A stretch of DNA of 64,000 nucleotides from the IMG/VR virus record IMGVR_UViG_3300042259_000159. The stretch is one strand, 5' to 3'. Within the stretch, counting starts at the first letter, position 1. Every line of letters begins with the position of its first letter. The notes beneath the pieces were generated by a model. The model did no database searches. It was not told the DNA's origin and saw only the letters and a program-made list of their open reading frames with translations. Made by a program: the position numbers and the translations under genes. The stretch is from a virus. Positions 1 through 63,622 of the stretch are shown one piece after another.

Positions 1-407
1 GTATGGGTGTTAAGTATCAACTCGTTCGCGTGAACAACACCGTTGCGCTTTTTCTGGGCCAATCCGCCGTCGTCCATGTACCAAATGGCGATGTGGATTG
101 CAGACAGCCTGTTCAGGAGTTTCCGGTTGTAGATGTTTTTATAGCCATCTTTGTATAATATCCTTCTCAGTGTTTTACCCCATTTAGTTGTGCTTATATA
201 AGTTCGGTAGCTATCAAATCCGTTATTATTTTTGTAGGTGATGTCAGAGCACTTCACCCCTTCGGAACGTAGATACGCGATTTTCCACAGCAAGTAATCT
301 TTTTGAGCTGCGCAGTGCAGTATCGATCCGCTCCCAGTTTTACCTAAGTGTCCGTCGCCCAAGATGACACTTAGTAATGCAGTTCGTGAACTTCTGTTAA
401 ACTTCAT
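1..407 (-). CDS. LAGLIDADG homing endonuclease (N-terminal part; ORF runs off left edge)
   Basis: Minus-strand ATG at 407..405 preceded by GGAGG. My translation is MKFNRSSRTALLSVILGDGHLGKTG...IHIAIWYMDDGGL, which shows two LAGLIDADG-type motifs. Absent from the ORF track because it is truncated. Confidence 0.7.
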   Translation of the reverse strand, partial: MKFNRSSRTALLSVILGDGHLGKTGSGSILHCAAQKDYLLWKIAYLRSEGVKCSDITYKNNNGFDSYRTYISTTKWGKTLRRILYKDGYKNIYNRKLLNRLSAIHIAIWYMDDGGLAQKKRNGVVHANELILNTH

Positions 408-463
408 GTTAAGCCTCCAAGCACTGTTGTGCTGTTTAAGTCGACATTTAGTCGTTGCACCTT

Positions 464-955
464 CTACCATAAGTAGTTACGGGAGATGTCCTTATAAGAT
501 CTCCGACTACGGATGTCGTCGTAGATATGCTTAGGTATCCCCATAAGGTCTCGAATTTCCTTTGCAGAGTGTCTGCCATCGGCAATCATCTGGCAAATTC
601 TATGCACCTTGTCATCAGGGAGTGTGCTATGTGGACGCTTGCACAACTTGTTCTTGAATGCGTGCTTCCGATTTTCAGATGGCGTCACCCACTCAAGATT
701 GTTCTTGTGGTTATCAATCTTAATCCCATTCTTATGATTGACAACTTTGCCTTCTTCGTAGCCTTGCACATATGTGTAAGCCACAAGTTTATGCACAAAG
801 ATACGAAGAGTCTTTCCTTCAGAGGAGAGGGTTACTCGCTTGTAACCTGTTCTATTAAGGTCAGTGCGCAACACTCTTCCTGTTTCTGAATTTAAGACAA
901 CACCCTCTTCATTAACGAGGTACTTTTCAAAACCTTTTATTGCGACTGGTCTCAC
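464..955 (-). CDS. HNH homing endonuclease
   Basis: Motif NHKNGIKIDNHKNNLEWVTPSENRKHA (HNH_3-like) with a NUMOD4-like N-terminus. GTG start preceded by AAGGAG. Lies inside the putative intron. Confidence 0.8.
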   Translation of the reverse strand: MRPVAIKGFEKYLVNEEGVVLNSETGRVLRTDLNRTGYKRVTLSSEGKTLRIFVHKLVAYTYVQGYEEGKVVNHKNGIKIDNHKNNLEWVTPSENRKHAFKNKLCKRPHSTLPDDKVHRICQMIADGRHSAKEIRDLMGIPKHIYDDIRSRRSYKDISRNYLW

Positions 956-1041
956 ACCTAATCTCCTTATAGTAGCTTGGCTCAGGATTGTCTCTGAGAG
1001 AGTTCCCCTGAATTCACACAGTTTTACGCGGGCATCAATTT

Positions 1042-2010
1042 ACCCGCCCCGAAGTAGAAGGTCTCTCCTAGTCTTCGTCCTCTTGTGGCTTTTGTCAGGC
1101 CAAGCCAAGGCCACGGCCTTCCGTATTCGGGCTTAGTTCTTGCTTTTTCTTTTAAGGTAGAACCCTTGACGATACGGGTGTTCTTTGGGACTACAGTCTT
1201 CCACTTGGTGGCTTGCAGACACTCCGCTACCTTCCCTTCGAGGAGACAGTCATTAACATCCTTACACGGAAGCTCAGCAACATGCCCTCCGGGGAAGATA
1301 CGAACAAACTCTTCTGCTGCTTTCTGACCGGGTTCGTCCATGTCAGGGACGTACACTACCTTCTCAAACAGCTGACGAATCTTGTTTGCATGTTGGAGAA
1401 CAGCCTTCTGCACACTTCCTGCTCCTGAAGGAAGGCTCACAACAGCAGGAATGAGATGTTTGTATTGGGTGTTTGCTACGCTATCCCTGAGCATTTGATA
1501 CAAAGACATTGCATCAATCTCACCTTCGGTGATGTACAGAGTCTTTGCTCCAGCTGTGATAGCTTGTTTCCAACCAAAGAACGAAGCCCCTTTCAAAGAG
1601 CCTATAGCCCACATCCTCTTATCTTTCAGGATTCGTGCTTTATAAGCAGTGAGCTGCCCTCCTTCATCCGTGTAAGGAAAGAATACGATGTCAGGAGTAG
1701 AGCCATCCATAGGTGAGACACCTACTTTGACATTGAAATGCTCAAGGGTTTCTTTCCTCAGCTTTCTTGAAGGAAGAGGATGAGAGAGAAGACTAATTAT
1801 GTGTTTAATTTCTTCGTCTATCTCTTCCTTCGTCTTTTTAGCCACTACAGGAGTGTAGCCTTCAGGTTTGTCCTTATAGGGGTCAGGGACATATTTTCCA
1901 CAAGAGAAACAGTAGCCATCATAGCTGCCATCTTCTTGTAAAAACACTTGTAAACCTGAAGCTGTTCCACAAGAGTGAGGCAATTTTTCTACGCATACTC
2001 CTCGTTTCAT
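1042..2010 (-). CDS. T7 gp4-like DNA primase-helicase, exon 1 (Zn-ribbon plus TOPRIM; helicase domain cut off)
   Basis: Cys cluster HSCG...CFSCGKY, TOPRIM motifs YITEGEIDAMSLYQ and VPDMDEPGQKAA, and the start of a helicase domain (GLTKATRGRRLGETFYFGAG). The track ORF is 1024..2010; the exon end is inferred. Confidence 0.7.
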
Positions 2011-2093
2011 ACCTCCTCCATGTTAGAAGTTAAAGGGGGAATTAACTTCCCCCTATTTATATATACGTCACAGACGAGAGAATGTGACAATTT

Positions 2094-2879
2094 TTATTGC
2101 ATATAATTCCGAATTGCTCTAGCGTATGCTTCAAGAGCAGTGCCCATAATGCCCGGAGCAGTGTTCACTTCCAAGACGTAAGCCATATTCGCCCGCTGGT
2201 TGTAGATAACATCCACTGCTCCGAAGTCAAGCCCAAGAGCTTTAACAGCGAGGAGAGCCTGATTCTGAACTTGGAAGGGGCAGGTGTCATTTACGTCAGC
2301 TCCGTCTTTGTCAGTCCGAACAAAGATGAATCCCTTCTCATGGTTGCGGATACGCCAATCCACATTCTTAATATTCATTTCGGGATTGAGGGCTTTCCTC
2401 GTGATGTCGATGATTCTCCCGTTAAAGACATGGACACGATACTCCTGCTTTTTCTTGATGTAAGCAGTGTAGAGAGGAGCCTCAGGAACTTTGCCATGAG
2501 GCTCCACCAATTCAATTCCCTTTCCGCCATACCCAACGAGAGTGTGACGAACGACTACACAACCTCCGTTTTCCGCCCACAACTGAGCTCTGTCTCGGTC
2601 GATAGTGAAGGCGGGAAAATTGACATACTCTTCATCTTCAAACACTTCAAAAGTACGAAGCTTGTTGGAAGCAATTGCCACTGCCTCAAAGTCGTTAAGC
2701 ACACGACAATCCTCAGGGATGTGCTTAGGACGGGTAGAGCAGCCCCAGTTGAGCACCATTTTATCGGGGGTCCATTTCCACTTGCTGCGTTCAGCTCGAA
2801 TGCGGAGAACACCCAATTCAGTAGCAAGGGCTTTAGCGGACGTAGACTCCATTTTGTAAGGCAGAATAAACAGTTTCAT
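2094..2879 (-). CDS. ATP-grasp family ligase
   Basis: VVVRHTLVGYGGKGIELV, EYRVHVFNGRIID, GLDFGAVDVIY...VLEVNTAPG are typical ATP-grasp (RimK-like) motifs. Confidence 0.7.
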   Translation of the reverse strand: MKLFILPYKMESTSAKALATELGVLRIRAERSKWKWTPDKMVLNWGCSTRPKHIPEDCRVLNDFEAVAIASNKLRTFEVFEDEEYVNFPAFTIDRDRAQLWAENGGCVVVRHTLVGYGGKGIELVEPHGKVPEAPLYTAYIKKKQEYRVHVFNGRIIDITRKALNPEMNIKNVDWRIRNHEKGFIFVRTDKDGADVNDTCPFQVQNQALLAVKALGLDFGAVDVIYNQRANMAYVLEVNTAPGIMGTALEAYARAIRNYMQ

Positions 2880-2889
2880 TTTTTGTCTC

Positions 2890-3714
2890 CTAGATGTCTA
2901 TTAAAGGTTCGTCGATAAACACTGCGTTCATAAAGTCAATGCCATTGACAATAGAGTAGCAGCGATAAAGCTGTCTTTTGAACGAAGCGTTAAAGTCTTC
3001 GTAGGCAAGAGCGAAGGGAAACACTTCCCTCGTAAAGGCTATTGCGTCTTTAGACGCTTCTTTCAGGAGGGCATGAGGGTCTTCAAAAGTACAAGCTTTC
3101 TCCCGAAGAGAGAGGAGAAGGCGGAGCCACTGCTCAATCACTGCGATGTCCACAGTCCCACGCATAGCTCTGAACTCAATCGAACCATACTGAGGCGTAG
3201 CCTTGATGTTCATGCTTGCATAACGAATGTCGTTGTCATCCAAGGCATTAAAGTTCATGCTTTTTGCAAGACCCTCCAGTTTGAAGATGAGTCCTTCCGC
3301 ATCAAAGGAAGAGAGGCAGAAGAGATTGCCTTTACGCGTTTCTCCACAAAACTCCAGAAGAGCGTCTTCATAAAGCAAGTAGAGTATAACAAAGTTGAAC
3401 CACTGGCCCACTGTCAATTTTTGAACGTTAATATGAACATGAACAGATGTTCTGTCCGAGAGGACAACATCCGCTCTCCTGAGATGTTCTCTCAGCATAC
3501 GGAGCCGACGACAAGCCCCCGGGAAGCTGATGGGTTGAGGAAGGACGTATTCCTTCGGGTCATGCCCCCCAATAGGACGAAGAGAAGGTTCGATATGTAC
3601 CTGCCACCCATTCACCTGACGGGGGAGGTCACGACCTTCCACCTCTATTTCAATGCCAATGTCCCCATTCTTAGGGACCAACCCCAGCATATCGGCAATA
3701 GTTATTTCAGCCAT
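2890..3714 (-). CDS. Amidoligase (Amidoligase_2 / GCS2-like COOH-NH2 ligase)
   Basis: IGIEIEVEG, TSVHVHINV, YGSIEFRAMRGT match the pattern I recall for the Amidoligase_2 family. Confidence 0.6.
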   Translation of the reverse strand: MAEITIADMLGLVPKNGDIGIEIEVEGRDLPRQVNGWQVHIEPSLRPIGGHDPKEYVLPQPISFPGACRRLRMLREHLRRADVVLSDRTSVHVHINVQKLTVGQWFNFVILYLLYEDALLEFCGETRKGNLFCLSSFDAEGLIFKLEGLAKSMNFNALDDNDIRYASMNIKATPQYGSIEFRAMRGTVDIAVIEQWLRLLLSLREKACTFEDPHALLKEASKDAIAFTREVFPFALAYEDFNASFKRQLYRCYSIVNGIDFMNAVFIDEPLIDI

Positions 3715-4268
3715 TCTTCTCCCACCACCTCTTTGATGTAGTTAGCATAGAAGTTGTCTGCCACAATAAACTTTTCTTCATCAATATCTGCCACAGGCAT
3801 AGTCCGATAGAAAAGACTCCGCTCCCCAATAGCGAATTCCCTATGGAAGGCTATGCTTCTTCTTCGAGAACGGTCTTTCTCAAAGCATTCTTCCACCGTA
3901 GGGTAGTCGGCTATAATGGTCTTTGCCAAGTCTCTTACATTGGGTTGAGCACTTATCCCTACATAGTTGGAACGAAGGTCCAGACGGTCAAGAACCAATC
4001 CTTGCTTCTGCTTCCGATGGGGCCAGCGAGCCACATACATTGAGACCCCAACTAGGGTGTTCACATAGCCCAAAGGAGGAGAGGCAAAGTCCCATCCCTC
4101 ATCCCTAATGTGGATGCGAGCATCTTCTCCTTCTTCATCAAGAATGTCATACCCATTAGCAAATCCATCTTCCACATGCCGGATGTAGAAGGGGCTGCCA
4201 TTATACCTCACTACCGTTCCTGCCAGACGCATATTAGCGTCATGGTCGTTATTAAATTTCAACAGCAT
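3702..4268 (-). CDS. hypothetical protein within the amidoligase cluster
   Basis: 188-aa ORF overlapping both neighbours by a few nt; no motif recognised. Confidence 0.5.
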   Translation of the reverse strand: MLLKFNNDHDANMRLAGTVVRYNGSPFYIRHVEDGFANGYDILDEEGEDARIHIRDEGWDFASPPLGYVNTLVGVSMYVARWPHRKQKQGLVLDRLDLRSNYVGISAQPNVRDLAKTIIADYPTVEECFEKDRSRRRSIAFHREFAIGERSLFYRTMPVADIDEEKFIVADNFYANYIKEVVGEEWLK

Positions 4269-5043
4269 GGGGCACTCCCAGATTGTACTTCTTAATAAGA
4301 GCGACTGCCGAATCTACATCCGAAGTGTTGATGATGTTGGTGATGTCTCCCTCTTCCTCAGCCAAGTCTCTTCCTGCAAGCAAGTCAACAACAGCTTGTC
4401 GGGAAGCGGAGAACACCCAACGCATCAGACGCTCTTCTTTAAGCCAAGCATTGGACAGAGTGCGATATTCCATGCCGTAAGGCTTAACACGAAAAGCCCC
4501 TGCCTTCCCGTAGAGTTCTCTCCTTTTGGTGTCCTTGTCGAACAGAAGAGAAGGCAATCCAAGGTAGAAATCCAGCTGCCGTGCAAGCTGACACGAAGCA
4601 AGGAAAGCTCCGAAGTCGTTCACATCATGCTCCATATAGCCGATATGAACATGCCCAGCAGCAGTGCGGAAGTCTCGATTACCGTCAGGAGAAGGGTTGA
4701 TGTCCTGCGTCCACCCATTGTAGTCGGGGTCACACCCCAATTCAAGAGCGGCAGGAGGCTGAGTAGCCATATACTCCTTGCCAAAATGAGCCACAGGCTC
4801 AATGACAATTTCCTCCTTCACCATACGACGAAGCTGAGCGAATACATGCTCAATGTTGCTGACGAAGGTGTTTTCATCAGCTGCCGGCTCAATGTTAAAC
4901 TCAAGAGCCATACCATCCACCTGTACAGCCCCCTTCTCAACAGGGAAAGGGGCTTCCTTAGTCCCGGGAATGAGGCCGTAGCCGGAGATGAACTTCCCAT
5001 TGTCCTTCACAAACAGTTCGGGGTCGGTGCCAATGTATATCAT
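4252..5043 (-). CDS. phiEco32-like COOH-NH2 ligase type 2
   Basis: N-terminus MIYIGTDPELFV, then DGMALEFNIEP and AAGHVHIGY, resembling the phage COOH-NH2 ligase type 2 family. Confidence 0.55.
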   Translation of the reverse strand: MIYIGTDPELFVKDNGKFISGYGLIPGTKEAPFPVEKGAVQVDGMALEFNIEPAADENTFVSNIEHVFAQLRRMVKEEIVIEPVAHFGKEYMATQPPAALELGCDPDYNGWTQDINPSPDGNRDFRTAAGHVHIGYMEHDVNDFGAFLASCQLARQLDFYLGLPSLLFDKDTKRRELYGKAGAFRVKPYGMEYRTLSNAWLKEERLMRWVFSASRQAVVDLLAGRDLAEEEGDITNIINTSDVDSAVALIKKYNLGVPHAVEI

Positions 5044-5054
5044 GTTATTCCTCC

Positions 5055-6266
5055 TTAAAAGGGTATATTAGAGTCATACAGGGAGACAAAGTCTTTGTCT
5101 TTCAGGCATTCCAAACAAACAGAATCGTATTCCGAGATGATTGCGATTTTCTCATTCCTCTCATAGAACTTCCCGCACCAGTCGCAGGAGTGGTAAGGGT
5201 GATGCGGGTAGCTTATCTTATACTCAATCTTAGGGGCTTCTTCCTCCTTCTGATTGATGGGAATGATGGAACCCACAGTGAAATACGTCTTCTTGTCGAG
5301 CGTTTGCCCGATGAACAATATCTTTGCCCGAAGGGGGACGCCCACAGGAACATCCGAGTTGCCATATGCGAAGTGACGAGCTTCAATATCCTCTCCAATC
5401 ACCTCACCGAAGTAGTCGACATTCTTCCCATATGTGCTTTCCCTTTTGTGGAACTTCACAGTGGCATACTCATCTTCTCGATAGGTGCGAAGATTCCCCA
5501 CTGCTTTTCGTGTTGCCCTCTCCCAATTATTCCACCCTTGGTGGATGTACGTTGTCTTGACAGGAGGCGTGTACGAGCAAGGAGTGAGCTTCTTGGTAGT
5601 GAGTTTAAGGCCGTTGCTCAAGTTCCACGAGTAGAGAACATTTTCTTTCACTTCGCAAGCTTTCATGCAGGGTATTTTGTTTCTCCAACATGCCGCATGA
5701 ATGAAGAAAGGCTCAGAAGCCCAGAACACCACCTTCTTTTCTTTGTCAAGCATATAGTAGAGAGGCCGCTTATCGTTCCGCAGCATGTTGAGCGTGTCTT
5801 CGTTTTCGTCATACCAGACAAGAGCAGCTGCCCCGCAAAGATTCTGCCAAGTGTCTTCCACACCATGTATGGACATATGGTGGTAGATGTTGGAAGAATC
5901 AACATCGAATTTCTTGTAATCCGCCAGAAGATGTTGGGCTGTAAGTGTTCCGTTATGCACTCCTGTAATGTGCCCATGCTGAAACGGATGAGCGTTTTCC
6001 TCGATAATAGTTCCTTTCGTTGCTGCTCTATTATGCCCTATAAGGCATTTCAACACTTGTGAAAAGATAGGCTGTACTTTACCAATGGTGACAAAGTCAT
6101 AGGCTGCCAGAAGAGATTTTTCGATAGTGACTTTCTTCGTATGGCGATTTACTCCAGCGAGACCCACGGAATCAACTCCGCGTATTTCGTCAAAGATGAG
6201 CATATCCTTGACTGCCTTCTCCTCTTTCGTTGTAATCAGTCCAGCTGCTCCAATAATACCACACAT
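5055..6266 (-). CDS. Class II (Ntn) glutamine amidotransferase with C-terminal Zn-ribbon region
   Basis: N-terminal MCGIIG (catalytic Cys2), GHNRAATKG, and C-terminal CDWCG...CLEC. Confidence 0.7.
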   Translation of the reverse strand: MCGIIGAAGLITTKEEKAVKDMLIFDEIRGVDSVGLAGVNRHTKKVTIEKSLLAAYDFVTIGKVQPIFSQVLKCLIGHNRAATKGTIIEENAHPFQHGHITGVHNGTLTAQHLLADYKKFDVDSSNIYHHMSIHGVEDTWQNLCGAAALVWYDENEDTLNMLRNDKRPLYYMLDKEKKVVFWASEPFFIHAACWRNKIPCMKACEVKENVLYSWNLSNGLKLTTKKLTPCSYTPPVKTTYIHQGWNNWERATRKAVGNLRTYREDEYATVKFHKRESTYGKNVDYFGEVIGEDIEARHFAYGNSDVPVGVPLRAKILFIGQTLDKKTYFTVGSIIPINQKEEEAPKIEYKISYPHHPYHSCDWCGKFYERNEKIAIISEYDSVCLECLKDKDFVSLYDSNIPF

Positions 6267-6391
6267 AGAATACTCCTTTTTCGCACAGAAAAGGGGTTTT
6301 AAGCCCCGTTTATTTGTTTTGTGGACAATGAGATGTCATTGCATCTACCATCGCTTAGAACCAATTCTCGAAAGAATTGGCTCCAAGAGGG

Positions 6392-7006
6392 TTAGATGCC
6401 GAATACATCCTTCAGTACAGTGAAGAACAGCGTTCGAGTGTCATCCTTCCCACCATATTCAGGATGGGGTTGGAAGCACAGGCTCTTAGTCTTCGGGTAG
6501 ACGACAATTTCAGCTTGGTCGTCACGAAGAACAGAGCGCACCCTTCTTTCAGCCGAGAGAAGAGTGTTGTCGATGCAGTCTTCCACTTCTCCGAATCCTT
6601 CAAGACGACCATGACGGGCAGGAATCATCATCTGGTGGTGAGTGGAGGTGACTTTGTACTTTTCTCCCCTCCAATCGAGAGTGTGTGTGCCTCTGATGGC
6701 ATGACCCGTGACATCCTGCCGCATACTTCCACCATTCATCACATTGAGGAATTGCCCCCCACGGCATATTCCCACCAATGCTGCGTTGTGTTGTGTGGCA
6801 AAGAGGTAGTTGGTTATGTCAGCAATGTCTCGCTGAATACAATTATGGGAAGCCCTGTTGAGTTCACCATACAGAGAAGGGGTGACATCATATCCGCCAG
6901 AGAACACAAAGAGGTCAGCTTCCTCCATCTGTGTTGTCATCTGGTAGCCTGCATTGAGGAACATGGTGGACACAGCAATGTCTTGCGTAGACATAAAGAA
7001 TTTCAT
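6392..7006 (-). CDS. Class I glutamine amidotransferase-like / peptidase C26 (gamma-glutamyl hydrolase type)
   Basis: Nucleophile elbow GICRGGQFLNV and THHQMM motif. Confidence 0.65.
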   Translation of the reverse strand: MKFFMSTQDIAVSTMFLNAGYQMTTQMEEADLFVFSGGYDVTPSLYGELNRASHNCIQRDIADITNYLFATQHNAALVGICRGGQFLNVMNGGSMRQDVTGHAIRGTHTLDWRGEKYKVTSTHHQMMIPARHGRLEGFGEVEDCIDNTLLSAERRVRSVLRDDQAEIVVYPKTKSLCFQPHPEYGGKDDTRTLFFTVLKDVFGI

Positions 7007-7815
7007 CGAAATCTCCTCAGGTTGTCTATTGTGTTGACGACAATTTCATCAGTGCCGGGAATATCTTTGTCGTATTCCAGCATGAGAGTATTGCCATTCC
7101 GTGTCACTCTTTTCCCGCTCTCTTTGAGAGCAGATTCAATAAGGTCTATGACAAGAGGCCGATTGGTGTAACGGTTCAGAGTTTTTTCTACTCCTCTGCC
7201 CCAGTCACCCCCATTAAACGGGTCATCCAAGTGCCTTTTTTCCAACTGCTCCCCGTATATGAAGGCGGACGCAGACCTCACCGTAAGACCAGTATCGAAG
7301 AGGGAATGAGGTCCTCTTCTCGACGCAATATATTTCTCCCCACGATAGAAGTAGGCACTAAGCAACGCCACGGGTGGAGACACTTCAAACTTCTTCATAT
7401 ACTCCACCATCTTTTCTATACGGAAATCCTCATGGACGTCCCACGGAAGACGAGCAAGAGTAGCTGCCGTCAGCAAGATGTTTCTGGGAGCGTCCAGAGA
7501 AATGTACACCCCTCCTTTCTTCTTGTTTGTGTTGTTCTCATAATAGCCCTTGAAGCCGCTTTTCTTGAACAGCCAAGGCCAGTAGTGTTCTTTCAAGAAC
7601 TCACCTTCAGACCTAATACCTCCTGCCGGCCCGGGGACACAGCAGAGGTGAGTATATCCATTTTTGAGGGTGTGCGAATTCTTGAGCCATGCAAGGCACA
7701 CTTCGTTCGGAAAAGATTCACACTCTCTCGTTTTTTCGTTCACGAGAAGGTAGGGTTGAGACCTTACGTTATCATCCTCCTGACATTTCTTCACTTCCTT
7801 AAAGAAACTCCTCAT
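7003..7815 (-). CDS. hypothetical protein (first gene of the amidoligase cluster)
   Basis: 270-aa ORF, ATGA-type overlap with 6392..7006, RBS AAAGGAG upstream. Confidence 0.5.
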   Translation of the reverse strand: MRSFFKEVKKCQEDDNVRSQPYLLVNEKTRECESFPNEVCLAWLKNSHTLKNGYTHLCCVPGPAGGIRSEGEFLKEHYWPWLFKKSGFKGYYENNTNKKKGGVYISLDAPRNILLTAATLARLPWDVHEDFRIEKMVEYMKKFEVSPPVALLSAYFYRGEKYIASRRGPHSLFDTGLTVRSASAFIYGEQLEKRHLDDPFNGGDWGRGVEKTLNRYTNRPLVIDLIESALKESGKRVTRNGNTLMLEYDKDIPGTDEIVVNTIDNLRRFR

Positions 7816-7835
7816 GTTTCTCTCCTTTCTTCTCT

Positions 7836-7882
7836 CTGTATAATATATATATATATATTATATAATAATATATATTATACAG
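7836..7882. repeat. AT-only palindrome (14-bp perfect arms CTGTATAATATATA / TATATATTATACAG)
   Basis: Read directly; sits immediately upstream of the RBS of 7003..7815. Confidence 0.8.
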
Positions 7883-8077
7883 AAGTTAATAGTTTAGTTA
7901 AGAGCAGGAAATCCTGCCCTCTCTAAAGTATTAACAGTAAGGGTCTTCGTCCTCTATCGACCAGTCAATCGGCTCCTCAGGCATAATCGTCACCATTTAT
8001 TTGCGAGTAATCTATTCCTTGTTATTGAAAGTTTCTTGTCACATTTTCCATTTTCCAACGTATAATATATTAAGAGA

Positions 8078-8479
8078 CTAGTTCTTGCGACACCAGATTC
8101 CGTCACAAGACGGAGGCTTATTCATCTGGTCAACGTGGAGAGACACACTCTCAATAGGGTATACAATCATGTTATCGTCCCCTTCTTCTTCCACATTGAG
8201 GTAGTAGGACGACTGTTTTTCAAAGTCAAAGTACCTCACTGATGTAACTTTCAGACAAACATGAGCGTTCTCTTTGTAGAAGAAGTCCCCAACATCAAGG
8301 TCGGTGAAAGCCCTCTTCAGGCTAGTATGTCGGCTAACAACTGCAACTCTGGTCATACTCTCTTCTCCTTCGTTTTCTTCCTTACCTTTCAGATAGGGAA
8401 TTTTCAATATTGCAAACACGCTGATACCCATAGCCGCTACCAGAAAGAAAGCTTCACTCCATAACATAGGAGGCTCCAT
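8078..8479 (-). CDS. hypothetical protein (N-terminal TM segment)
   Basis: ORF track. Hydrophobic FFLVAAMGISVFAIL. The start may be the second ATG at 8467 (GGAG upstream). Confidence 0.4.
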   Translation of the reverse strand: MEPPMLWSEAFFLVAAMGISVFAILKIPYLKGKEENEGEESMTRVAVVSRHTSLKRAFTDLDVGDFFYKENAHVCLKVTSVRYFDFEKQSSYYLNVEEEGDDNMIVYPIESVSLHVDQMNKPPSCDGIWCRKN

Positions 8480-8481
8480 GA

Positions 8482-8691
8482 TTAGCGTTCAAGCCAAGAA
8501 TACTCTTCAGTAATACGGAAAAGTGAACAAAGTGGGTATTTATATACGACACGCTTCTTATCTTCCTCAACCAAAATACAGAAAAGACCGCCTTTTGTAT
8601 ATGTGTTGACGACATTCTCAAGCGTAATTGGTTGGCTGGATTCATTTCTATGTATTGAAATTTTCATACCTTTCTCAATAGCGTCAGTCAT
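8482..8691 (-). CDS. hypothetical protein
   Basis: ATG at 8691 preceded by AAAGGAG (MTDAIEKGMK...). Confidence 0.4.
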   Translation of the reverse strand: MTDAIEKGMKISIHRNESSQPITLENVVNTYTKGGLFCILVEEDKKRVVYKYPLCSLFRITEEYSWLER

Positions 8692-8963
8692 TGTACTACT
8701 CCTTTTAAGTATGCGCACCCTACGTATATAGAGCCGATGTGGAATTTCGTACCCTTAAGTTCAGGCTGTTTCCTTCCAACTTTCTTCAGAAATCTTCTGA
8801 AAGCACGGAGGGTACGACAGGGAGGCCCATGACTGGAGAAGCCTTTCTCTGTCGTACACTCTTCAAGCGGAAGCCAGATGCCATCACAATACCAGAGACC
8901 ATCGGACGCAGGTCTCCAGAAGTAACGTCGCAAACGGGCACCTCGCGAGCTAAAAAGTTTCAT
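8688..8963 (-). CDS. hypothetical protein
   Basis: ORF track; overlaps the start of the downstream gene by 4 nt. Confidence 0.4.
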   Translation of the reverse strand: MKLFSSRGARLRRYFWRPASDGLWYCDGIWLPLEECTTEKGFSSHGPPCRTLRAFRRFLKKVGRKQPELKGTKFHIGSIYVGCAYLKGVVQ

Positions 8964-9028
8964 CAGTCTCCCCTACCTTGTAAATGGCACTATTTTTCAA
9001 AACCCTGTCTAGGCTTTTTGCAGACATC

Positions 9029-9274
9029 TTACTTCCTCCTCTCCATCCATATCTGACGTATCTCTTGGAAGAGACTAAGACCTTCATGAAGAATAAGTGC
9101 AAGCACCCCTACCCAAGACAACACCGCAACAATAGCACAAACGATGAGTGCCTCACCAAATGTGTTGACATAACATCCATACGTCCTTTGTAGGCCAATA
9201 AGGACTAGGCAGCCTATATATGCAACAACTACCCCGCTCAGGTAAGTGGAAACGACAAGCTCTATTCCCGTCAT
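9029..9274 (-). CDS. small membrane protein
   Basis: 81 aa, with two or three hydrophobic segments. Confidence 0.4.
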   Translation of the reverse strand: MTGIELVVSTYLSGVVVAYIGCLVLIGLQRTYGCYVNTFGEALIVCAIVAVLSWVGVLALILHEGLSLFQEIRQIWMERRK

Positions 9275-9427
9275 TTTACTTCCTCCGTGCTTTGTCCAGC
9301 ATCATCCTCTGGTTTTCAGACAGTTGTCCCCAATACACTTGGGGATTGTACAAGGCTTTCCACGAGGGCAGACGCAGTTCCTTAGCCAGTGACTTTTCTA
9401 TTGCGTTAGGCATAACCTTCATCCTTG

Positions 9428-9766
9428 TTAATATTCATAGTATTCGCGTAAAGCGTCGTTGTTCCATGCCGGCTCATACACAGGCTTGTCATGTGCTTCT
9501 GCGAGCTTGTGAAGCACGTCGACAATGAAGGAAACGCCATTCTTTGCTTTCTTCGGATTGTTCTTCAGCTGGGCTTCAGCCGCAAGTCTCCCTACCCACT
9601 TCACATATCGGTCAGAGTTGGAACACTTCGCCACACCATACTCCACCTCTCCACTAGGGAGAGAACGGTATGCCACCGTAGCTCCACCGAAAGGATGATA
9701 AGGGTAGAAGTCACCGTTACGGTTGATGTAGCTGCGGCGGTAGTGAAAGAACGACACTTTATCCAT
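9428..9766 (-). CDS. hypothetical protein, PFGGATV paralog family member 1
   Basis: Motif HPFGGATVAYR...YGVAKCSNSDRYVKWVGRLAA, shared with 9784..10050 and 28094..28573. Confidence 0.55.
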   Translation of the reverse strand: MDKVSFFHYRRSYINRNGDFYPYHPFGGATVAYRSLPSGEVEYGVAKCSNSDRYVKWVGRLAAEAQLKNNPKKAKNGVSFIVDVLHKLAEAHDKPVYEPAWNNDALREYYEY

Positions 9767-9783
9767 TTCTATTCTCCTTTGTC

Positions 9784-10050
9784 CTATTCCCAGCGACCAC
9801 GGTAGTCAGGTGTATTGTATGCTGCTCTTATGTACGCTACTATTCCATCGAACACGTCTTTTTTCATTGTTAAAGGGGCAGACAGAGCGTCTATGTATGC
9901 GAGGTTACGCCCGATGCGTTTCACATACTGTTCAGAGTTACAGCATCGGGCAAGGCCAAATGCTACAGCATCCCCTACCTTGCGGTAGAAAACAGTAGCG
10001 CCACCAAACGGATGAAGACGCAATTCACCTTTACGGCTTATGTAGGGCAT
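9784..10050 (-). CDS. hypothetical protein, PFGGATV paralog family member 2
   Basis: HPFGGATVFYR...FGLARCCNSEQYVKRIGRNLA. Confidence 0.55.
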   Translation of the reverse strand: MPYISRKGELRLHPFGGATVFYRKVGDAVAFGLARCCNSEQYVKRIGRNLAYIDALSAPLTMKKDVFDGIVAYIRAAYNTPDYRGRWE

Positions 10051-10069
10051 TGCTCCCTTCTCTTAATTG

Positions 10070-10312
10070 CTACAACACATCACACACACGAGTCCCATTG
10101 TTATAGTAGTATCGGTATTCCCGCACCTTAACAAGTTGTCCTTCCTTGTTAGGTGACATTACACCAATGGAAATGGAAGGAAATATTCCTAGCTCCAATT
10201 CATGCAATGCTACCTTATAAGCGGCGTCGAATGTTGAAAACAATTGGTATCGGTAGGTGTATACGGACATTACACTGTCTTCCAGAATAATTTCATTCCG
10301 CAGACTTTTCAT
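10070..10312 (-). CDS. hypothetical protein
   Basis: ORF track; GAGGAA RBS upstream of the ATG. Confidence 0.4.
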   Translation of the reverse strand: MKSLRNEIILEDSVMSVYTYRYQLFSTFDAAYKVALHELELGIFPSISIGVMSPNKEGQLVKVREYRYYYNNGTRVCDVL

Positions 10313-10428
10313 ATTATTTCCTCACTTTCTTTCATCAATCGATTTGCAATCCCACCGAATGATGATAGTAGCTTATGCTACCAACAAGGGAAGGGGCGAC
10401 GCATAGACGCATCACCCCTTCCCTTGCT

Positions 10429-10797
10429 TTAGAACACCATATCGAGAACCGCCGACACGGCTTTGTTTAGTGTATGGAATCTTGCTTCTTCTTCCATCCT
10501 ATCGCCCGTGATATTCACGAGCACAATGCTATCGAGGTGCGGAAGGAGGGTATAGTCCTCCTCGTTGATAGAAAAGAAAAGCCCTTCCTCGCTTTCATAT
10601 GCGGCGATAAGGCGCTTGGCTACGTCCTGTTTATCCTTCTCCAGCCGGAGACGCTTTACGGCCTCGCTGTTTTCAACGTAGTCATGGCAATCCGTTCCAC
10701 CTTTACGGGCAACGAACGCACCACCGCCACAAGTCAGGGGCTTTCCTTCACCCCACCGGCAAGTCTGGCAATATTGTGTGTTTTGCATAGCAGTCAC
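10429..10797 (-). CDS. hypothetical protein
   Basis: ORF track; Cys pair YCQTCRW near the N-terminus. Confidence 0.4.
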   Translation of the reverse strand: MTAMQNTQYCQTCRWGEGKPLTCGGGAFVARKGGTDCHDYVENSEAVKRLRLEKDKQDVAKRLIAAYESEEGLFFSINEEDYTLLPHLDSIVLVNITGDRMEEEARFHTLNKAVSAVLDMVF

Positions 10798-10866
10798 TAC
10801 TCCATTGGTTATGGTTCATCACATAATTGCAAGCCCTATTGCTAGGGCCTGCTATATGGGACGAAG

Positions 10867-11532
10867 CTAATCAAGGGAAATGCCGCAATCAAATGCGAGG
10901 CTTTTCACACGGTCGAGAAATTCTTTCATATTGTCCTCGGGAATGTATTGTCCCTCGGCCAGTTTTTTCAAGTCAGACTTGATTGCATTGACTGCTTTTC
11001 CCTTGTACGGTTTTTCAGGCTTGGCAGGATTAAAATCATACCATGACTGAGCCGCGAGGCGGGCTTTCACGCTCATGACATTAAAAGACTTGGCGATAAG
11101 CTTCCCTTTTTTGTACGGTTCGCCGTTCGGATCGAGAAGCGTTTCACCGTCCGCTTTCTCCTTCGCCGTTTCGAATTTCCCCTTTTTCATATTCCAGCGT
11201 ATAGCGGACGCGCTTGCGTCCAGAACCGGCTTGTTGTCCTTATCGTATTGTATGGGACCGTCGCAGAATACCCATAACATATAGTTTTGTACTGCCGTGA
11301 TGTTAATTGCCCGTGTGCCGCCGATACGTGTCATGAATTCGCTCATAAGGCGGCAACCTACTTCGCCGTCAGTATCTTCCGCCTTCGCCATTACAGCGTC
11401 GACGATAACCGCCTGGACGGCTTCGCGGAAGGACAATGCCATTGCCTCGATATCCGGCATGGCGGCTGCGAACCTTTCAGCATGCTGGCGGACAACAGGA
11501 TTACTAATCTTGCTTGCGTCGAAGTTGCTCAT
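10867..11532 (-). CDS. hypothetical protein
   Basis: ATG at 11532 preceded by GAGGT (MSNFDASK...); the track ORF extends to 11592. Confidence 0.5.
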   Translation of the reverse strand: MSNFDASKISNPVVRQHAERFAAAMPDIEAMALSFREAVQAVIVDAVMAKAEDTDGEVGCRLMSEFMTRIGGTRAINITAVQNYMLWVFCDGPIQYDKDNKPVLDASASAIRWNMKKGKFETAKEKADGETLLDPNGEPYKKGKLIAKSFNVMSVKARLAAQSWYDFNPAKPEKPYKGKAVNAIKSDLKKLAEGQYIPEDNMKEFLDRVKSLAFDCGISLD

Positions 11533-11868
11533 GGTCTTTACCTCACTTACGTTATTTGTTTGTGGTATGAATGAACAAGCCACCTTGCGCATTCAAGCCC
11601 ACAAACAAACAAAACCTTGCTAGGGCTTGTTTGTCTATGGCGCACAAAGCGTCTATCCTACTTTTCGCCATAGTCCATGATGCGCGTTCCCCGATAGCCT
11701 AGGAATAATTTGTCCTTTCTAAGCGAAGAAATACGCGGAACCATGCTACTTTTCGAATATCCGCTTTGCTTTTCGGAGCGGTGGCCCGCTGCAACCACTT
11801 AAGGAGTCTAGACCACGTCACGCCGCTGAATTCTATCAACGGTCTGCGATGTAAGACGGTACGGAACC

Positions 11869-11897
11869 TATATAGGACGGTTACCTATCGGTGTCAA
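11869..11897 (-). promoter_or_regulatory. sigma70-type promoter (TTGACA-N17-TATATA)
   Basis: Minus strand reads ccggTTGACAccgataggtaaccgtccTATATAgg, about 330 nt upstream of 10867..11532. Confidence 0.5.
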
Positions 11898-12502
11898 CCG
11901 GTTTTTTCGTCCGCTTGCCGTACCGTGCCGGTATGCCGCTGATATAGCATACGCCGTGCCAACGTGTGCAACATGTTGAAATATCAGCACTATTTTTTGT
12001 GCCCTGAAACGCTATGCCCTAACCGCTTTATGTAAACCGTTGAAATGACTAGCTTTTCATATAATGCCGGTTAAAAATTTTGTACCGCTTTTCTGCTAGT
12101 GAATGAAAACTATGGCAATGCCGTAATGTAAGCGCCTGATATAATTGGCGGTTTAAAAAATTATACCATTTCAGGCAAAAGTATAAAAAATTGAACCGAC
12201 CATTTTCTTGTATAATGAGACGCGATTGCAATTATTATGCCAAACTGAATGGAACGCCTTGTGCTTATGCAATTGCCATGCCAATTGATATGGCACAATA
12301 AGTGCATAAGCAAGCATTGTGCCAACAAAGTTATCAGCCAGTTTAGCATGAAGCGTGCCATAATGTCATAAGTGAATGATAGCAGCATGATAGCATGGTT
12401 CAGCAATCTGAATATAGAATGTTATGTCTCGTTTATTGATCATTGCATATAAGCAAAATGATCAATAAGAGAGACAATATTATATAATAAGTATATACTT
12501 GT

Positions 12503-31600: not shown

Positions 31601-31609
31601 GATTAATTT

Positions 31610-31647
31610 AAAAACCGCTTGACAAAATCAGGCGGTTTTTCTATTGT
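31610..31647 (+). promoter_or_regulatory. composite terminator hairpin / sigma70 promoter (AAAAACCGCttgacaaaatcagGCGGTTTTT; TTGACA-N17-TATTGT)
   Basis: The -35 hexamer lies in the loop of a U-tailed hairpin. Near-identical copy at 38080..38116. Confidence 0.55.
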
Positions 31648-31706
31648 GTTCCTACGGCAACGAGGAAAAGAACACAAATACGCAACAAACAAAAGGGGAA
31701 ATAAAG

Positions 31707-33270: not shown

Positions 33271-33295
33271 GGCCGGAAATAATCCGGCCTTTTTT
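33271..33295 (+). terminator. rho-independent terminator
   Basis: GGCCGGAaataaTCCGGCC followed by TTTTTT. Confidence 0.75.
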
Positions 33296-33377
33296 ACGTC
33301 TAAATCCAGAGGACTTTTTCATTTTAAAAGGTCTAGAGAGGTTTTTCATTTTGGGAGGTCTAAAGAACATTTTCAAT
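33288..33377 (+). repeat. 90-bp direct repeat, copy 1 (identical copy at 37862..37951)
   Basis: CCTTTTTTACGTCTAAATCCAGAGGACTTTTTCATTTTAAAAGGTCTAGAGAGGTTTTTCATTTTGGGAGGTCTAAAGAACATTTTCAAT is present at both sites. Confidence 0.9.
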
Positions 33378-37808: not shown

Positions 37809-37861
37809 GGGCTACGTTAAAATTAGCAAAAACTTCAAAAAAGGCGTTGACAAGGTTGACG

Positions 37862-37951
37862 CCTTTTTTACGTCTAAATCCAGAGGACTTTTTCATTTTA
37901 AAAGGTCTAGAGAGGTTTTTCATTTTGGGAGGTCTAAAGAACATTTTCAAT
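37862..37951 (+). repeat. 90-bp direct repeat, copy 2
   Basis: See 33288..33377; it also follows a terminator hairpin. Confidence 0.9.
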
Positions 37952-38087
37952 CCGATGCAGCCTTTGCCGCGTATAGCCGTGACCGCATTGGTTTGGATGG
38001 AGAACTGGAGGGATTGTATGCGTGTAAGCCTCCGCTAACACACATAAGGCTGCTTACAGTAAAAATAGAAAAACTATTCAAAACCGC

Positions 38088-38116
38088 TTGACAAAACCGG
38101 GCGGTTCTTCTATTGT
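38088..38116 (+). promoter_or_regulatory. composite hairpin / sigma70 promoter, second copy (AAACCGCttgacaaaaccgGGCGGTT; TTGACA-N17-TATTGT)
   Basis: About 45 nt near-identical to 31610..31655. Confidence 0.55.
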
Positions 38117-38157
38117 GTTCCTAACGAACACAAACACTCAACAAAGAGAGGTAAAGA

Positions 38158-55122: not shown

Positions 55123-55206
55123 TGGTAGGAGAAGAGAGATTCGAACTCTCAAGGAATAATCCGTCGAGGCTTAAACTCGATGTGTTTACCATTTCACCAT
55201 TCTCCC
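55123..55206 (-). tRNA. tRNA-Leu (anticodon UAA), type II with long variable arm, CCA encoded
   Basis: GGGAGAA/TTCTCCT acceptor, anticodon arm TCGAG-TTTAAGC-CTCGA, T-arm GAGAG-TTCGAAT-CTCTC. Confidence 0.75.
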
Positions 55207-55245
55207 GTATTTTTTATCTACCATTCCGCCATTCCCGCATTTATT

Positions 55246-55323
55246 TGGTACCCACTGTGAGATTCGAACCCACACTAATCAGTTTCTAAGACTGATGCCT
55301 CTGCCAAGTTGGGCTATACCAGT
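55246..55323 (-). tRNA. chimeric / possibly defective tRNA (anticodon UAG, short variable loop)
   Basis: Good D, anticodon (TCAGT-CTTAGAA-ACTGA) and T arms. However, 5' acceptor ACTGGTA pairs poorly with the local 3' strand AGTGGGT and well with TGCCAGT at 54617..54646. Confidence 0.45.
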
Positions 55324-55581
55324 ATTATGCTTATTATTTTATTTTGAAAGGCCATATGTATACACATATATATATATACATATATATATGTATAGAGCAA
55401 CCAAAATGGTTAAATAAAAAGGTGTTTTGTGGAGACACCAAACTCCTCCAGTTTTAGTGATCTGGAAACAATAAGCGGCGCAGGTGCTCTTTAAAACACG
55501 TGCTACCAAGCGTATAAATTGTCTAGGGGATTTCACCAAACACATTATGTTATTGGAGGGATCTTTCCCTAGACTCAGTAA

Positions 55582-55654
55582 AGCTCCTGACAGGACTTGA
55601 ACCCGCAACCGGCTGATTACAAATCAGCTGCTCTGCCAGTTGAGCTACAGGAGC
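55582..55654 (-). tRNA. tRNA-Thr (anticodon UGU), no encoded CCA
   Basis: GCTCCTG/CAGGAGC acceptor, GCTGA-TTTGTAA-TCAGC. Confidence 0.8.
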
Positions 55655-55658
55655 AGAA

Positions 55659-55730
55659 CAGAGGGAGAAGGATTCGAACCTTCGAATGACGGGACCAAAA
55701 CCCGTTGCCTTACCGCTTGGCTACCCCTCT
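55659..55730 (-). tRNA. tRNA-Gln (anticodon UUG), no encoded CCA
   Basis: ACGGG-TTTTGGT-CCCGT anticodon arm, T-arm GAAGG-TTCGAAT-CCTTC. Confidence 0.75.
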
Positions 55731-55738
55731 AAATTTTT

Positions 55739-55815
55739 TGGCTCCGGCGGCAGGATTTGAACCTACATTCGCAATGGTTAACAGCCATTTGCCTTACCAA
55801 TTCGGCGACACCGGA
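55739..55815 (-). tRNA. tRNA-Asn (anticodon GUU), CCA encoded
   Basis: AATGG-CTGTTAA-CCATT, TTCAAAT T-loop, acceptor TCCGGTG/CGCCGGA. Confidence 0.75.
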
Positions 55816-55860
55816 ATGAACTTTTTATTTGTTATCAGCATTGTTTTGCTTTATTTTAAA

Positions 55861-55939
55861 TGGTCTCGGTGATTAGATTTGAACTAATGATTATTCCTGC
55901 TCCCAAAGCAGGTGCCATACCAAGCTAGGCGACACCGAG
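55861..55939 (-). tRNA. tRNA-Pro (anticodon UGG), CCA encoded
   Basis: CCTGC-TTTGGGA-GCAGG, T-arm ATTAG-TTCAAAT-CTAAT, acceptor CTCGGTG/CACCGAG. The variable region is slightly long. Confidence 0.65.
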
Positions 55940-56293
55940 ATCAGGTGTGGTACCAAACTCCACTATGGGCAGAGGTTATAAGAAGGTCCGTACATGATAT
56001 AGACAGATATTCTTCCATAACAGCGGTACGGACGCTGTCTCATTTTTATATCTTTCAGTGTGCTATTACGCCAAAGGGAAATTAAGCCTTACCAGTTACG
56101 GGGTGCCCTTTTACTATCCACAAAGAATTTCAAATCGCGTGCATTCTAAGTATCGGAAAATTCTACAACCACTTAAAGTACACCTCGTTTAAGAGATAGC
56201 GACCTGTGCTTCGTCCCACTCTTTAAAGGATGGCTGCCTCAAAGCCCACCTCCTGAAAAATGCATGAAGGATTATCCCTCCTTCGCTAAATAC

Positions 56294-56322
56294 AACCTAT
56301 CAATTTTAAGGGTTCTTGTCAA
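56294..56322 (-). promoter_or_regulatory. sigma70-type promoter (TTGACA-N17-TAGGTT, then GTATTTAGC) facing the tRNA cluster
   Basis: The minus strand has the same architecture as the promoters at 26289 and 32237. Confidence 0.5.
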
Positions 56323-56423
56323 GAACATTTTAAGGTTTTTGAAATTTTTGTTGAACGCTGATTTGCTACGCGGGTACAGCGTTCGAAACCTCGATAGCAT
56401 CCTTGCCGTTGGCAAAGCTGTCA

Positions 56424-56505: not shown

Positions 56506-56519
56506 CCATCCTAGTCACC

Positions 56520-58013: not shown

Positions 58014-58022
58014 TAAAATCTT

Positions 58023-62604: not shown

Positions 62605-63082
62605 GGTAGATAACTGCCCTGTACACAGGAAACTGTGTATGTGTATCTCATTAAAACGGGGAACCCTAAGTGTACACGCATAAGGGAATCCCGTGACTAC
62701 GCAAGCCGAAAAAGGAGTAGGCATGAAAAATTTAGGATTTATGGGTTTTGATAAGTGTGCGGATATGTTCTGACCTAGAGAAGGGTTTTTCATGCTCTTC
62801 TACTGTAAGGAGGAATAAGGTTGGAACAAGCACGGTACATAGGATCTATAGAAGAAAAACGCATACTTCCATATCTAAGAATTTTTCTTGGGAGTAGTTG
62901 TAACGACTAGTTCATAAGAACGTAAGACACAAGTAGTCCTTAAGTGCAAGGACAAGGTGTTTGAAACATGAGACACTCTAACAAGTAATGTTGAGGGTGA
63001 AGAGATAGTCTGAACTGTATAGAAATATACAGCAGGAGAACATTTTAATGTTTTTCCGGCAGATGCCTTACGAACATCTGTG
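62605..63082 (+). ncRNA. group I intron 1 in terL (ORF-less, approx 478 nt)
   Basis: Core GTAACGACTAGTTC...GAAGAGATAGTCTGA, hairpin CTGTATAgaaaTATACAG, terminal CAGATG..CATCTG hairpin, ends in G. Confidence 0.6.
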
Positions 63083-63368
63083 AACATTTTGGGTGCCGCA
63101 GGTTCGGGAAAGTCATACATAATGAATATGATACCTTTGAGGTATGTCGATTGCCCCAACTTTAGGGGGATTGTCTTCCGAAGGGAAACGACACAGCTTA
63201 CAGGTGAAGGGGGGATGTGGGATACAGCAACGGAGATATACTCTGAGCTGCCTAAAAATATCAGGCCCAAAATATTGAAACATAACCTGAGAATGATTTT
63301 TCCGAATGGGGCAAAAATTAAGTTTTCACACATGGAAAATGATAATGATTTCAGGAAACATCAAGGGT
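63083..63368 (+). CDS. terL: terminase large subunit, exon 2 (Walker A)
   Basis: NILGAAGSGKSYIMN...GIVFRRETTQL...KFSHMENDNDFRKHQG. Confidence 0.7.
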
Positions 63369-63622
63369 TAATTAGTAGCCCCTTGTGTTGGTGACAGCGC
63401 AAGCAAACTAACCTAATTCGGTGGAAGCCCAAACATGTAGGATGTGGGTGATACCGAGCAAGCCACGGCGTGTGTAACGACTAGTTCTTAGGAACGTAGG
63501 CCCAAGCGGGTCGAAACGGTTAGCATCTTATTAAGATGAAGATATAGTCTACTCTGCATGGAAACATGCAGCGGACACTTTATGTGTCGGGCAGATGTTA
63601 GCGCCATCTGTTGAATATTATG
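63369..63622 (+). ncRNA. group I intron 2 in terL (ORF-less, approx 254 nt)
   Basis: GTAACGACTAGTTC...GAAGATATAGTCTAC (compare canonical AGATATAGTC), CTGCATGgaaaCATGCAG, CAGATG..CATCTG. U before the 5' junction and G before the 3' junction. Confidence 0.65.

Follow-up and report, generated by a model that had tools for sequence, protein, structure and literature searches.

Two homing endonuclease genes of different families in one predicted group I intron within the Walker A motif of a phage primase-helicase gene

Background

Can a single group I intron accommodate homing endonuclease genes of two different families, and if so, how might it have come by the second? The question is raised by the first lines of a 64,000-nucleotide (nt) stretch of viral DNA, IMG/VR virus record IMGVR_UViG_3300042259_000159, which at its full length is called the window below. 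There, on the minus strand, an open reading frame (ORF) for the primase part of a putative gp4-type primase-helicase stops just before the expected P-loop, and is followed by ORFs for an HNH and a LAGLIDADG endonuclease. Among the selfish elements of phages, group I introns that carry a homing endonuclease gene are a textbook case, and those of subgroup IA with an HNH gene are classical. A preliminary description of this DNA had proposed that one group I intron interrupts the gene, that the helicase exon lies to the left of the window, and that two stacked endonuclease families point to successive invasions. We consider it quite probable that the locus holds one self-splicing group I intron, placed in the Walker A codons, with an HNH gene in its P6 loop and a LAGLIDADG cassette that arrived later.

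Results and discussion

A primase-helicase gene divided within its P-loop

The ORF at 1024..2010 (minus strand, as are all features of this locus) encodes 328 amino acids, among them the Zn-ribbon-like motif PHSCG...CFSCG and a TOPRIM domain (Toprim_2 at 36.8 bits, where the Pfam cutoff is 22.1), and its C-terminus reads ...GETFYFGAGKLMPA*. Based on the ORF, Pfam matches and an alignment of homologues, exon 1 covers 1042..2010 and runs from the Zn ribbon through the TOPRIM domain and a linker to the helicase domain's first strand, closing with ...YFGAG. Its final base is U1042, which places the 5' splice site at 1042|1041, and the reading frame continues for 5 codons into the intron until the UAA at 1026-1024. 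Eight public contigs carry the gene for the primase protein; a megablast search of window positions 1-4000 against GenBank phages gave no match.

The helicase exon is absent from the window, as a search run in case of circular permutation gave no match there. JGI contig Ga0451648_000465 (3300042258; L001) is 100% identical to window 1..12010 (12,010 nt) and then extends leftwards. On this contig, 133 non-coding nt separate the LAGLIDADG ORF from a further ORF, which starts ...VKMGKSEVV. Exon 2 thus lies where it had been predicted, to the left of the window, at L001 12337-13032 and 326 nt beyond the edge. The intron ends in ...ACACAUG, with its terminal G at L001 12336, and is followed by GUCAAA of exon 2. 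In-silico splicing across L001 10969|12337 joins GGGCGGGT|GTCAAAATGGG as the predicted ligated exons, restores YFGAG|VKMGKSEVV, and gives a 554-amino-acid protein in frame.

The spliced product aligns with its homologues without an insertion or deletion, and the homologue consensus at the junction is YIGAGVKMGKSEIV. Uninterrupted homologues occur in Salinivibrio phage CW02 and two oyster-associated Zobellviridae, which read YI[GA]AG[VE]KMGKSEIV, gap-free at the junction; the spliced protein is 48-57% identical to these uninterrupted proteins. The T7 gp4 structures 5IKN and 6N7I also align to the spliced protein gap-free over the junction (residues 78-518, E about 1e-32, with residues 81-518 matched in one unbroken stretch at E = 2e-32), in agreement with the original claim that the primase ORF is interrupted just before GK[ST] of the P-loop. 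Exon 2 alone has no family match in Pfam, and the spliced protein matches Toprim models only, so the helicase assignment rests on the T7 gp4 structures and the homologues. A Zn ribbon, a TOPRIM domain and an SF4 helicase with Walker A are found in one polypeptide only after in-silico splicing. Because the junction is in frame and colinear with both the homologues and T7 gp4, the gene reads as a gp4-type primase-helicase split inside Walker A, with the predicted break between the codons for GAG and VKM.

An intein was rejected as the cause of this split, as the insert is not translated in frame with the host protein: the frame of exon 1 reaches a stop after 5 codons of the insert, and the inserted ORFs use their own ribosome-binding sites (RBSs) and start codons.

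A group I core of subgroup IA type

The insert between the exons is 1367 nt long, with its first 1041 nt in the window (1..1041) and the remaining 326 nt at L001 12011-12336. Its non-coding sequence totals 275 nt, in segments of 86, 56 and 133 nt. Subtracting the P6 loop (L001 11042-11541, 500 nt) and the LAGLIDADG cassette (L001 11563-12206, 644 nt) leaves a core of 223 nt. We aligned this core with ORF-deleted versions of two homologous introns (L105, from IMGVR_UViG_3300028601_000002, and L009, from GenBank PQ867851.1) and with 11 ORF-less introns, for a total of 14 sequences.

P1 (1028..1047) pairs the exon sequence GCGGGU (1047-1042) with an internal guide, GCCCGC (1033-1028), that sits 8 nt into the intron, and U1042 contributes the U-G pair at the splice site. 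All three aligned P1 sequences pair, with L105 the same as this intron and L009 showing the compensatory AUGGGU/GCCCAU. A P10 helix is possible between UUGAU (1038-1034) and the first 5 nt of exon 2, GUCAA. The P3 5' strand, CUGUGUG (1015..1021), has its partner CGCACAG outside the window at L001 12239-12245; 92.9% of P3 cells are paired, both sides have changed in 5 of the 7 pairs (UUUCGUG/CGCGAAA in L009), and the minimum free energy (MFE) fold predicts the helix too. Positions 970..1011 hold P4 (UCAGGG), the P5 hairpin, P4' (UCCUGA) and the 5' strands of P6 and P6a (CC...CUACUA), as judged from a partial Rfam alignment and covariation. Covariation also places the P6a 3' strand UGGUAG, the P6 3' strand (AAGG), J6/7 (UGCAAC) and the P7 5' strand GACUA at 449..469, and the P7 pairs are invariant or compensated.

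This last segment contains a family-wide 15-mer, AAGGTGCAACGACTA (463-449), that is found exactly in more than 120 viral contigs of IMG/VR among the matches listed, as is a second core motif, GATGATATAGTCTG; the two are usually 62-117 nt apart. In the family consensus, GACUA is followed by a GNRA-capped P7.1, GUA, P7.2, GAAG, P3', P8 and AUGAUAUAGUC, which corresponds to J8/7 and P7'. P7.1 (UUCC-GGAA-GGAA) is 94% paired across the family, and P7.2 (GGGGC-AAGU-GCUCC) is 92% paired. An extension of P7.1 and P7.2 between P7 and P3' is a hallmark of subgroup IA.

The resemblance to the Tetrahymena intron core that had been seen in ACGACTAAATGTCGAC holds in part. Its ACGACTA is indeed core sequence (J6/7 and the P7 5' strand), whereas AATGTCGAC (RNA AAUGUCGAC) belongs to the LAGLIDADG cassette, of which it forms the opening 9 nt, and is not P3', the real P3' (CGCACAG) being about 680 nt downstream. 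A Tetrahymena-like P3' straight after P7, with UGUCGAC or CACAACAGU in the LAGLIDADG leader as candidates, was ruled out because the family alignment puts P7.1 and P7.2 first and gives CGCACAG as P3', with compensatory changes.

The modelled structure consists of P1, P3, P4, P5, P6/P6a, P7, P7.1, P7.2, P8, P9, P9.1 and P9.2, and P2 is absent. Among the 14 sequences, 90.7% of the cells are paired against 31-39% in slid controls, a margin that is still large given that drawing the structure from this very sequence favours it over such controls. P7 is 100% and P8 96.4% paired. Changes on both sides occur in 42 of 65 pairs, and none of 500 shuffles reached the observed values. An unconstrained MFE fold of the ORF-deleted core recovers P3-P6, P7.1, P7.2, P8, P9 and P9.2 (z = -3.39). 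Elements such as P7.1 and P7.2 are among those used for classing introns (PMC3984707).

The presence of two endonuclease families in one intervening sequence could also reflect two separate group I introns, adjacent or nested as a twintron, each with its own endonuclease gene, which is how a comparable sequence in phage phiNIT1 has been read (PMC11878797). Closely spaced multiple introns do occur in this family, in L125, L042 and the terminase gene of this window. Against such an arrangement, the 1367 nt contain only one P1, P3, P4-P6, P7 partner (UAGUC), P8 and P9, and the three non-coding segments are all used by one core. Moreover, Rfam gives only a single partial match, and the LAGLIDADG cassette is a leader, an ORF and 3 nt, without a second guide or core. 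Since there is one set only of core helices, the insert is one intron rather than two, as first proposed, and a pair of introns is very unlikely. The covariation and the MFE fold thus describe what is predicted to be a single group I intron, subgroup IA-like, with P7.1 and P7.2 and without P2.

A further alternative dispenses with splicing: the gene would be naturally split into a separate primase and helicase, with free-standing endonuclease genes between them. Gene callers do predict a 328-residue primase and a 232-residue ORF from an ATG just before exon 2, and other phages have stand-alone primases and helicases. However, the break falls inside Walker A (GAG|VKMGKS) and leaves the pre-P-loop strand and GKS on different ORFs, close homologues are uninterrupted, and the gap is filled by a complete ribozyme with covariation support whose P1 and P10 fit these exact exon ends. 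A split without splicing is therefore extremely improbable.

An HNH endonuclease gene in the P6a loop

Within the predicted intron, both endonuclease ORFs are present as initially described, each with its own RBS. The HNH gene (464..955) encodes a 163-residue, I-HmuI-like protein in the P6a loop. It starts with GTG downstream of the RBS AAGGAG (968-963), and is enclosed by the P6a stem CUACUA/UGGUAG such that its stop codon UAG is inside the P6a 3' strand. The protein matches HNH_3 (PF13392) in Pfam at 34.9 bits (cutoff 24.8) and NUMOD4 at 21.2 bits, just under the cutoff of 23.4. It also matches the I-HmuI structure 1U3E (E = 8e-16) and phrog_59 (E = 7e-35). Its orthologue in L105 is 82% identical (133/163), and that in L009 is 41% identical. 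From the position in the P6 loop and these two orthologues, we infer that the enzyme cuts intron-less primase-helicase alleles (such as ...TACTTCGGGGCGGGTGTCAAAATGGGAAAATCT...) near the P-loop codons.

The L009 intron (L009 4976-5528 in GenBank PQ867851.1, phage KZY1-k141_1938105) is a homologous HNH-only intron whose HNH protein is 109 residues long. Its insertion point is in the same P-loop, 9 nt farther downstream (...QKMG|KSEVV), with a correspondingly adapted guide. In the GenBank record, 'DNA primase/helicase' is the annotation of three coding sequences (CDS), namely exon 1, the HNH ORF and exon 2.

A LAGLIDADG cassette between P7 and P7.1

The LAGLIDADG cassette, recognized through Pfam and absent from L105, is 644 nt long, and 1..448 of the window is the portion of it found there. 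It is made up of a leader (41 nt), an ORF (600 nt) and 3 further nt. The leader (448-408) contains a hairpin, AGCAC-AACA-GUGCU (433-420), and the RBS GGAGG (418-414). The ORF begins at ATG 407 and runs off the window (407..<1), with 135 residues in the window and the complete 199 on L001. The protein matches LAGLIDADG_2 (PF03161) over its full length (69 bits, profile positions 5-168 of 168), and has two LAGLIDADG motifs, VILGDGHL and WYMDDGGL, each with an acidic residue. It belongs to phrog_11023, and bears a faint resemblance to I-SceI (E = 0.02) and 6X1J (E = 0.002).

The cassette starts directly 3' of the P7 5' strand (...CAACGACUA|AAUGUC...), and ends with the stop codon and CUA (...AAGUCUUGACUA|UUCC-GGAA-GGAA), where it adjoins an intact P7.1. 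The predicted location of the gene is therefore the P7(5')/P7.1 junction of the core, and not a classical terminal loop.

The hairpin upstream of the RBS (...AAAC-AGCAC-AACA-GUGCU-U-GGAGG) is conserved at the equivalent place in L237, L238 and L318-L324, and its stem shows compensatory changes among relatives, such as ACAC...GUGU. It may be an element of translational control or of RNA processing.

Evidence for a probable successive arrival of the endonuclease genes

Successive invasion of the intron by endonuclease genes, as envisaged in the preliminary description, is supported because an HNH-only intron occupies the same site in L105 and because the same cassette occurs at the same junction in unrelated introns. 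The L105 intron is the same intron at the same insertion site, with the HNH gene but not the cassette, and reads ...CAACGACTA|GGCGAAAGCC... where the cassette would be. Its core is 90.1% identical to the core of the present intron, and 10 of the 24 differences fall within the 29 nt just 3' of the cassette, with 0 in the 45 nt on the 5' side. Such a cluster beside the cassette is expected from co-conversion during acquisition, but relaxed evolution of the hairpin could also yield it.

Among the matches listed, relatives of the cassette that share 84%, 77%, 85% and 68-41% identity at the protein level come after AACGACTA in further introns, which differ in P4, P7.2 and host gene. The cassette is at the same junction in L237, L238, L318 and others, and AACGACTA is 16-46 nt upstream of the ATG in 56 of the 81 viral loci encoding LAGLIDADG relatives. 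In introns whose 3' cores share only about 54-66% identity, the DNA of the cassette reaches 72-75%. L238 is a second, independent two-gene intron, with a 194-residue HNH protein in P6, a LAGLIDADG cassette and an apparent capsid gene downstream. The two-endonuclease arrangement itself is present on about 10 contigs from several samples; since these carry it in an essential gene, it can be argued that it is functional.

Four independently assembled contigs from different samples (L003-L006; 3300042268, 3300042269, SRR35183622 and SRR35183618) all stop precisely at the cassette's left boundary, ...GCAACGACTA. Such ends are what a branched assembly graph would give, and they suggest that the cassette is present in some members of the population and absent from others, or that a repeat is involved. 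In a population lacking the cassette, ...CAACGACTA would be joined directly to TTCCGGAAGG. The reconstituted empty site, GCAACGACTATTCCGGAAGGAAGTAGG, is present uninterrupted in another intron (L398), and GGTGCAACGACTATTCCGGAAGGAAGTAGG would be a synthetic form of cassette-less intron DNA.

The difference between L105 and the present intron could also be explained in reverse: if the two-endonuclease intron is ancestral, L105 would have arisen by precise loss of the cassette in a cycle of gain, degeneration and loss, and the cassette would move only inside whole introns. The flanking GACTA copies could promote such a precise deletion, and the position after the P7 5' strand, common to many introns of the family, could be due to common descent. 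However, nearly all LAGLIDADG-bearing introns have a short, ORF-less P6, and the nearest relatives of the cassette reside in cores far more divergent than the cassette-less core of L105, which is 90% identical. The differences from L105 are, in addition, clustered beside the cassette as predicted for co-conversion during gain. We therefore consider ancestry of the two-gene form unlikely, and prefer the later gain of the LAGLIDADG cassette.

Points against the proposed reading

Several observations weigh against one intron with a cassette gained second. The native sequence gives only a partial match to the Rfam group I model, Intron_gpI (RF00028), at 903..1066, and the score from this covariance search, which had been suggested as a check, is 20.6 bits (E = 0.022), under the gathering score of 50; the native-sequence scores are 20.6 and 20.4 bits. 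The match spans P1-P6 and then drifts into the HNH ORF. The low score is explained by the 500- and 644-nt insertions, which break the model, and relatives that have these core motifs and no ORF reach 66-98 bits.

The insertion of the cassette next to the P7 5' strand places it in the catalytic core, where it might impair folding. Copies of GACUA flank it on both sides, and either could form P7. This double bracketing is seen in the present subclade and not in more distant relatives, and for this reason the upstream copy is favoured as the P7 5' strand. A closing stem that would pair the cassette ends (GUCGACUUAA with UUAAGUC-UU-GAC) was considered and is not claimed, as RNAduplex comparisons with shuffled sequences reveal a weak trend only: 10.7% of the shuffles equal the stem at this locus, and the mean z is -0.8 over 10 loci.

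The incongruence between cassette and core sets protein-coding DNA beside structural RNA, and is suggestive only. A lookup through the identical HNH protein recovered only cassette-bearing contigs, and no cassette-less allele of this exact phage. Finally, splicing itself and the cleavage targets of both enzymes are predictions drawn from sequence, and the order in which the two genes were acquired is likewise deduced.

A possible mechanism and its reach

In the mechanism we propose, the last bases of exon 1 would bind the ribozyme's guide (P1, GCGGGU/GCCCGC) and UUGAU would bind the first bases of exon 2 (P10), and self-excision of the ribozyme would then yield an mRNA for the 554-residue gp4-type enzyme. 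On unspliced RNA, ribosomes would terminate after reading 5 codons of the intron. Both endonuclease genes would be translated independently while looped out of the 223-nt core. The HNH enzyme presumably drives homing of the whole intron into intron-less alleles. The LAGLIDADG cassette was most likely gained second, and would be a mobile unit of its own among introns of this family, probably cutting conserved core DNA (...GCAACGACTA|TCCC...); its recurrent placement after AACGACTA is the reason to regard intron-core DNA as the target.

Tentatively, and with rather less than even confidence, we suggest an extended form of this idea. The cassette might be an autonomous hyperparasite that targets DNA of the intron core (GCAACGACTA|TCCC..., the P7/P7.1 junction) and not the host gene, and so might spread from intron to intron regardless of the gene they occupy. 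Two-endonuclease introns would then arise whenever it lands beside an HNH gene, and its protein might be a maturase that offsets the disruption near P7.

Comparison with known introns

The introns in the DNA polymerase genes of SPO1 and SP82 (I-HmuI), in Twort, and in the Pf-WMP3 DNA polymerase gene (I-PfoP3I, PMC3428280) resemble the present one in several respects: they have a self-splicing core type with P7.1 and P7.2 (here predicted), are inserted at highly conserved codons of an essential replication gene, and carry in a loop an I-HmuI-type HNH gene with its own RBS. Unlike those phage IA introns, the present intron splits Walker A of a gp4-type primase-helicase, lacks P2, and has a second endonuclease family.

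Double-ORF introns are already known in Podospora and in phage phiNIT1. As summarised in PMC4964425, the biorfic introns nad1-i4 and cox1-i7 in Podospora anserina mitochondria have an optional second ORF that acts as a mobile unit entering a one-ORF intron. They share with the present intron the presence of two ORFs in one group I intron, but they are organellar, whereas the intron described here is in a phage and has its second ORF at the P7(5')/P7.1 core junction.

The intervening sequence within the gene that encodes the DNA polymerase of the Bacillus phage phiNIT1 has been reported as self-splicing in vitro and as spliced in the course of infection, and its two ORFs were taken by the authors to mark two distinct introns (PMC11878797). 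The sequence (AP013029 100.46-102.23 kb) has the same two PHROG families, a phrog_59 HNH and a phrog_11023 LAGLIDADG gene, and on our reading in the reverse arrangement: the P5 region holds the LAGLIDADG gene, and the HNH gene follows P7. A tblastn comparison of phiNIT1 with the present LAGLIDADG protein gave no detection at E < 1e-5. By inspection only, L399 40460-42232 (AP013029 100460-102232) contains one P4/P4', one P7 5' strand GACTA and one P7' TAGTC, which suggests a single ribozyme core for the phiNIT1 sequence as well.

A review names GIY-YIG, HNH, PD-(D/E)xK and EDxHD as the families commonest in phage introns, and LAGLIDADG is not among them (PMC3984707). In crAss-like phages, LAGLIDADG genes occur, as do group I introns in MCP, PolB and primase genes (PMC7886860), and the nearest GenBank relatives of the present LAGLIDADG protein (41-45% identity) are from these phages. 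Many viral loci with an ORF just after AACGACTA are on contigs of about 100 kb, mostly from one metagenome sample. The introns of crAss-like phages carry a single ORF, in contrast to the two found here (PMC7886860), and the present host phage differs from crAss-like phages in having a replication module like that of CW02 and the Zobellviridae.

Other features of the window and of related loci

Genes upstream of the primase (window 2094-7000, minus strand) encode ATP-grasp-like, Amidoligase_2, COOH-NH2_lig, class-II glutamine amidotransferase and Peptidase_C26 proteins, and ATP-grasp and amidoligase genes are annotated upstream of the primase in CW02-like phages too. The window and L001 together imply a genome well over 64 kb, and the identical LAGLIDADG protein is found on a 117-kb contig and on an IMG/VR contig of 91.6 kb. 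The phage is thus larger than typical CW02-like Zobellviridae (45-50 kb), despite its CW02-like replication module.

The terminase large-subunit gene (window 62875-64000, plus strand; Terminase_6N, with Walker A GAAGSGKS in ORF 63080..63394) contains three or more group I introns that lack ORFs and belong to the family described above. Rfam locates them on the plus strand at 62875-63032 (39.2 bits, under the gathering score), 63359-63571 (76.1 bits) and 63728-63997 (77.5 bits, reaching the window end). A cluster of eight tRNA genes is at 55126-58202 (minus strand). The window also contains a perfect 91-nt direct repeat (33287-33377 and 37861-37951, 4.5 kb apart) and a 47-nt repeat that is 91% identical (31608-31654 and 38077-38123).

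In L237, some 180-250 nt downstream from the LAGLIDADG ORF, the sequence of the exon that comes after the intron is ...VVGGAAG|CLPGDTEFLSENGW.... This looks like an intein right after the P-loop, which would combine an intron and an intein in one gene.

Conclusions

The locus is unusual in that one predicted ribozyme carries two endonuclease families, and in that L105 and the present phage form a natural before-and-after pair. It is also unusual for the same LAGLIDADG cassette to occupy the same core junction in divergent introns of different genes. Automatic annotation fragments genes interrupted in this way, as in the three "primase/helicase" CDS of PQ867851, and ORF-bearing introns are under-counted because Rfam misses them. 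If intron-core DNA is indeed where the cassette homes, one selfish element would clearly be parasitizing another, and the association of endonuclease genes with ribozymes would be explained. A position beside P7 would also be defined at which some 650 nt of foreign sequence are tolerated by a group I ribozyme.

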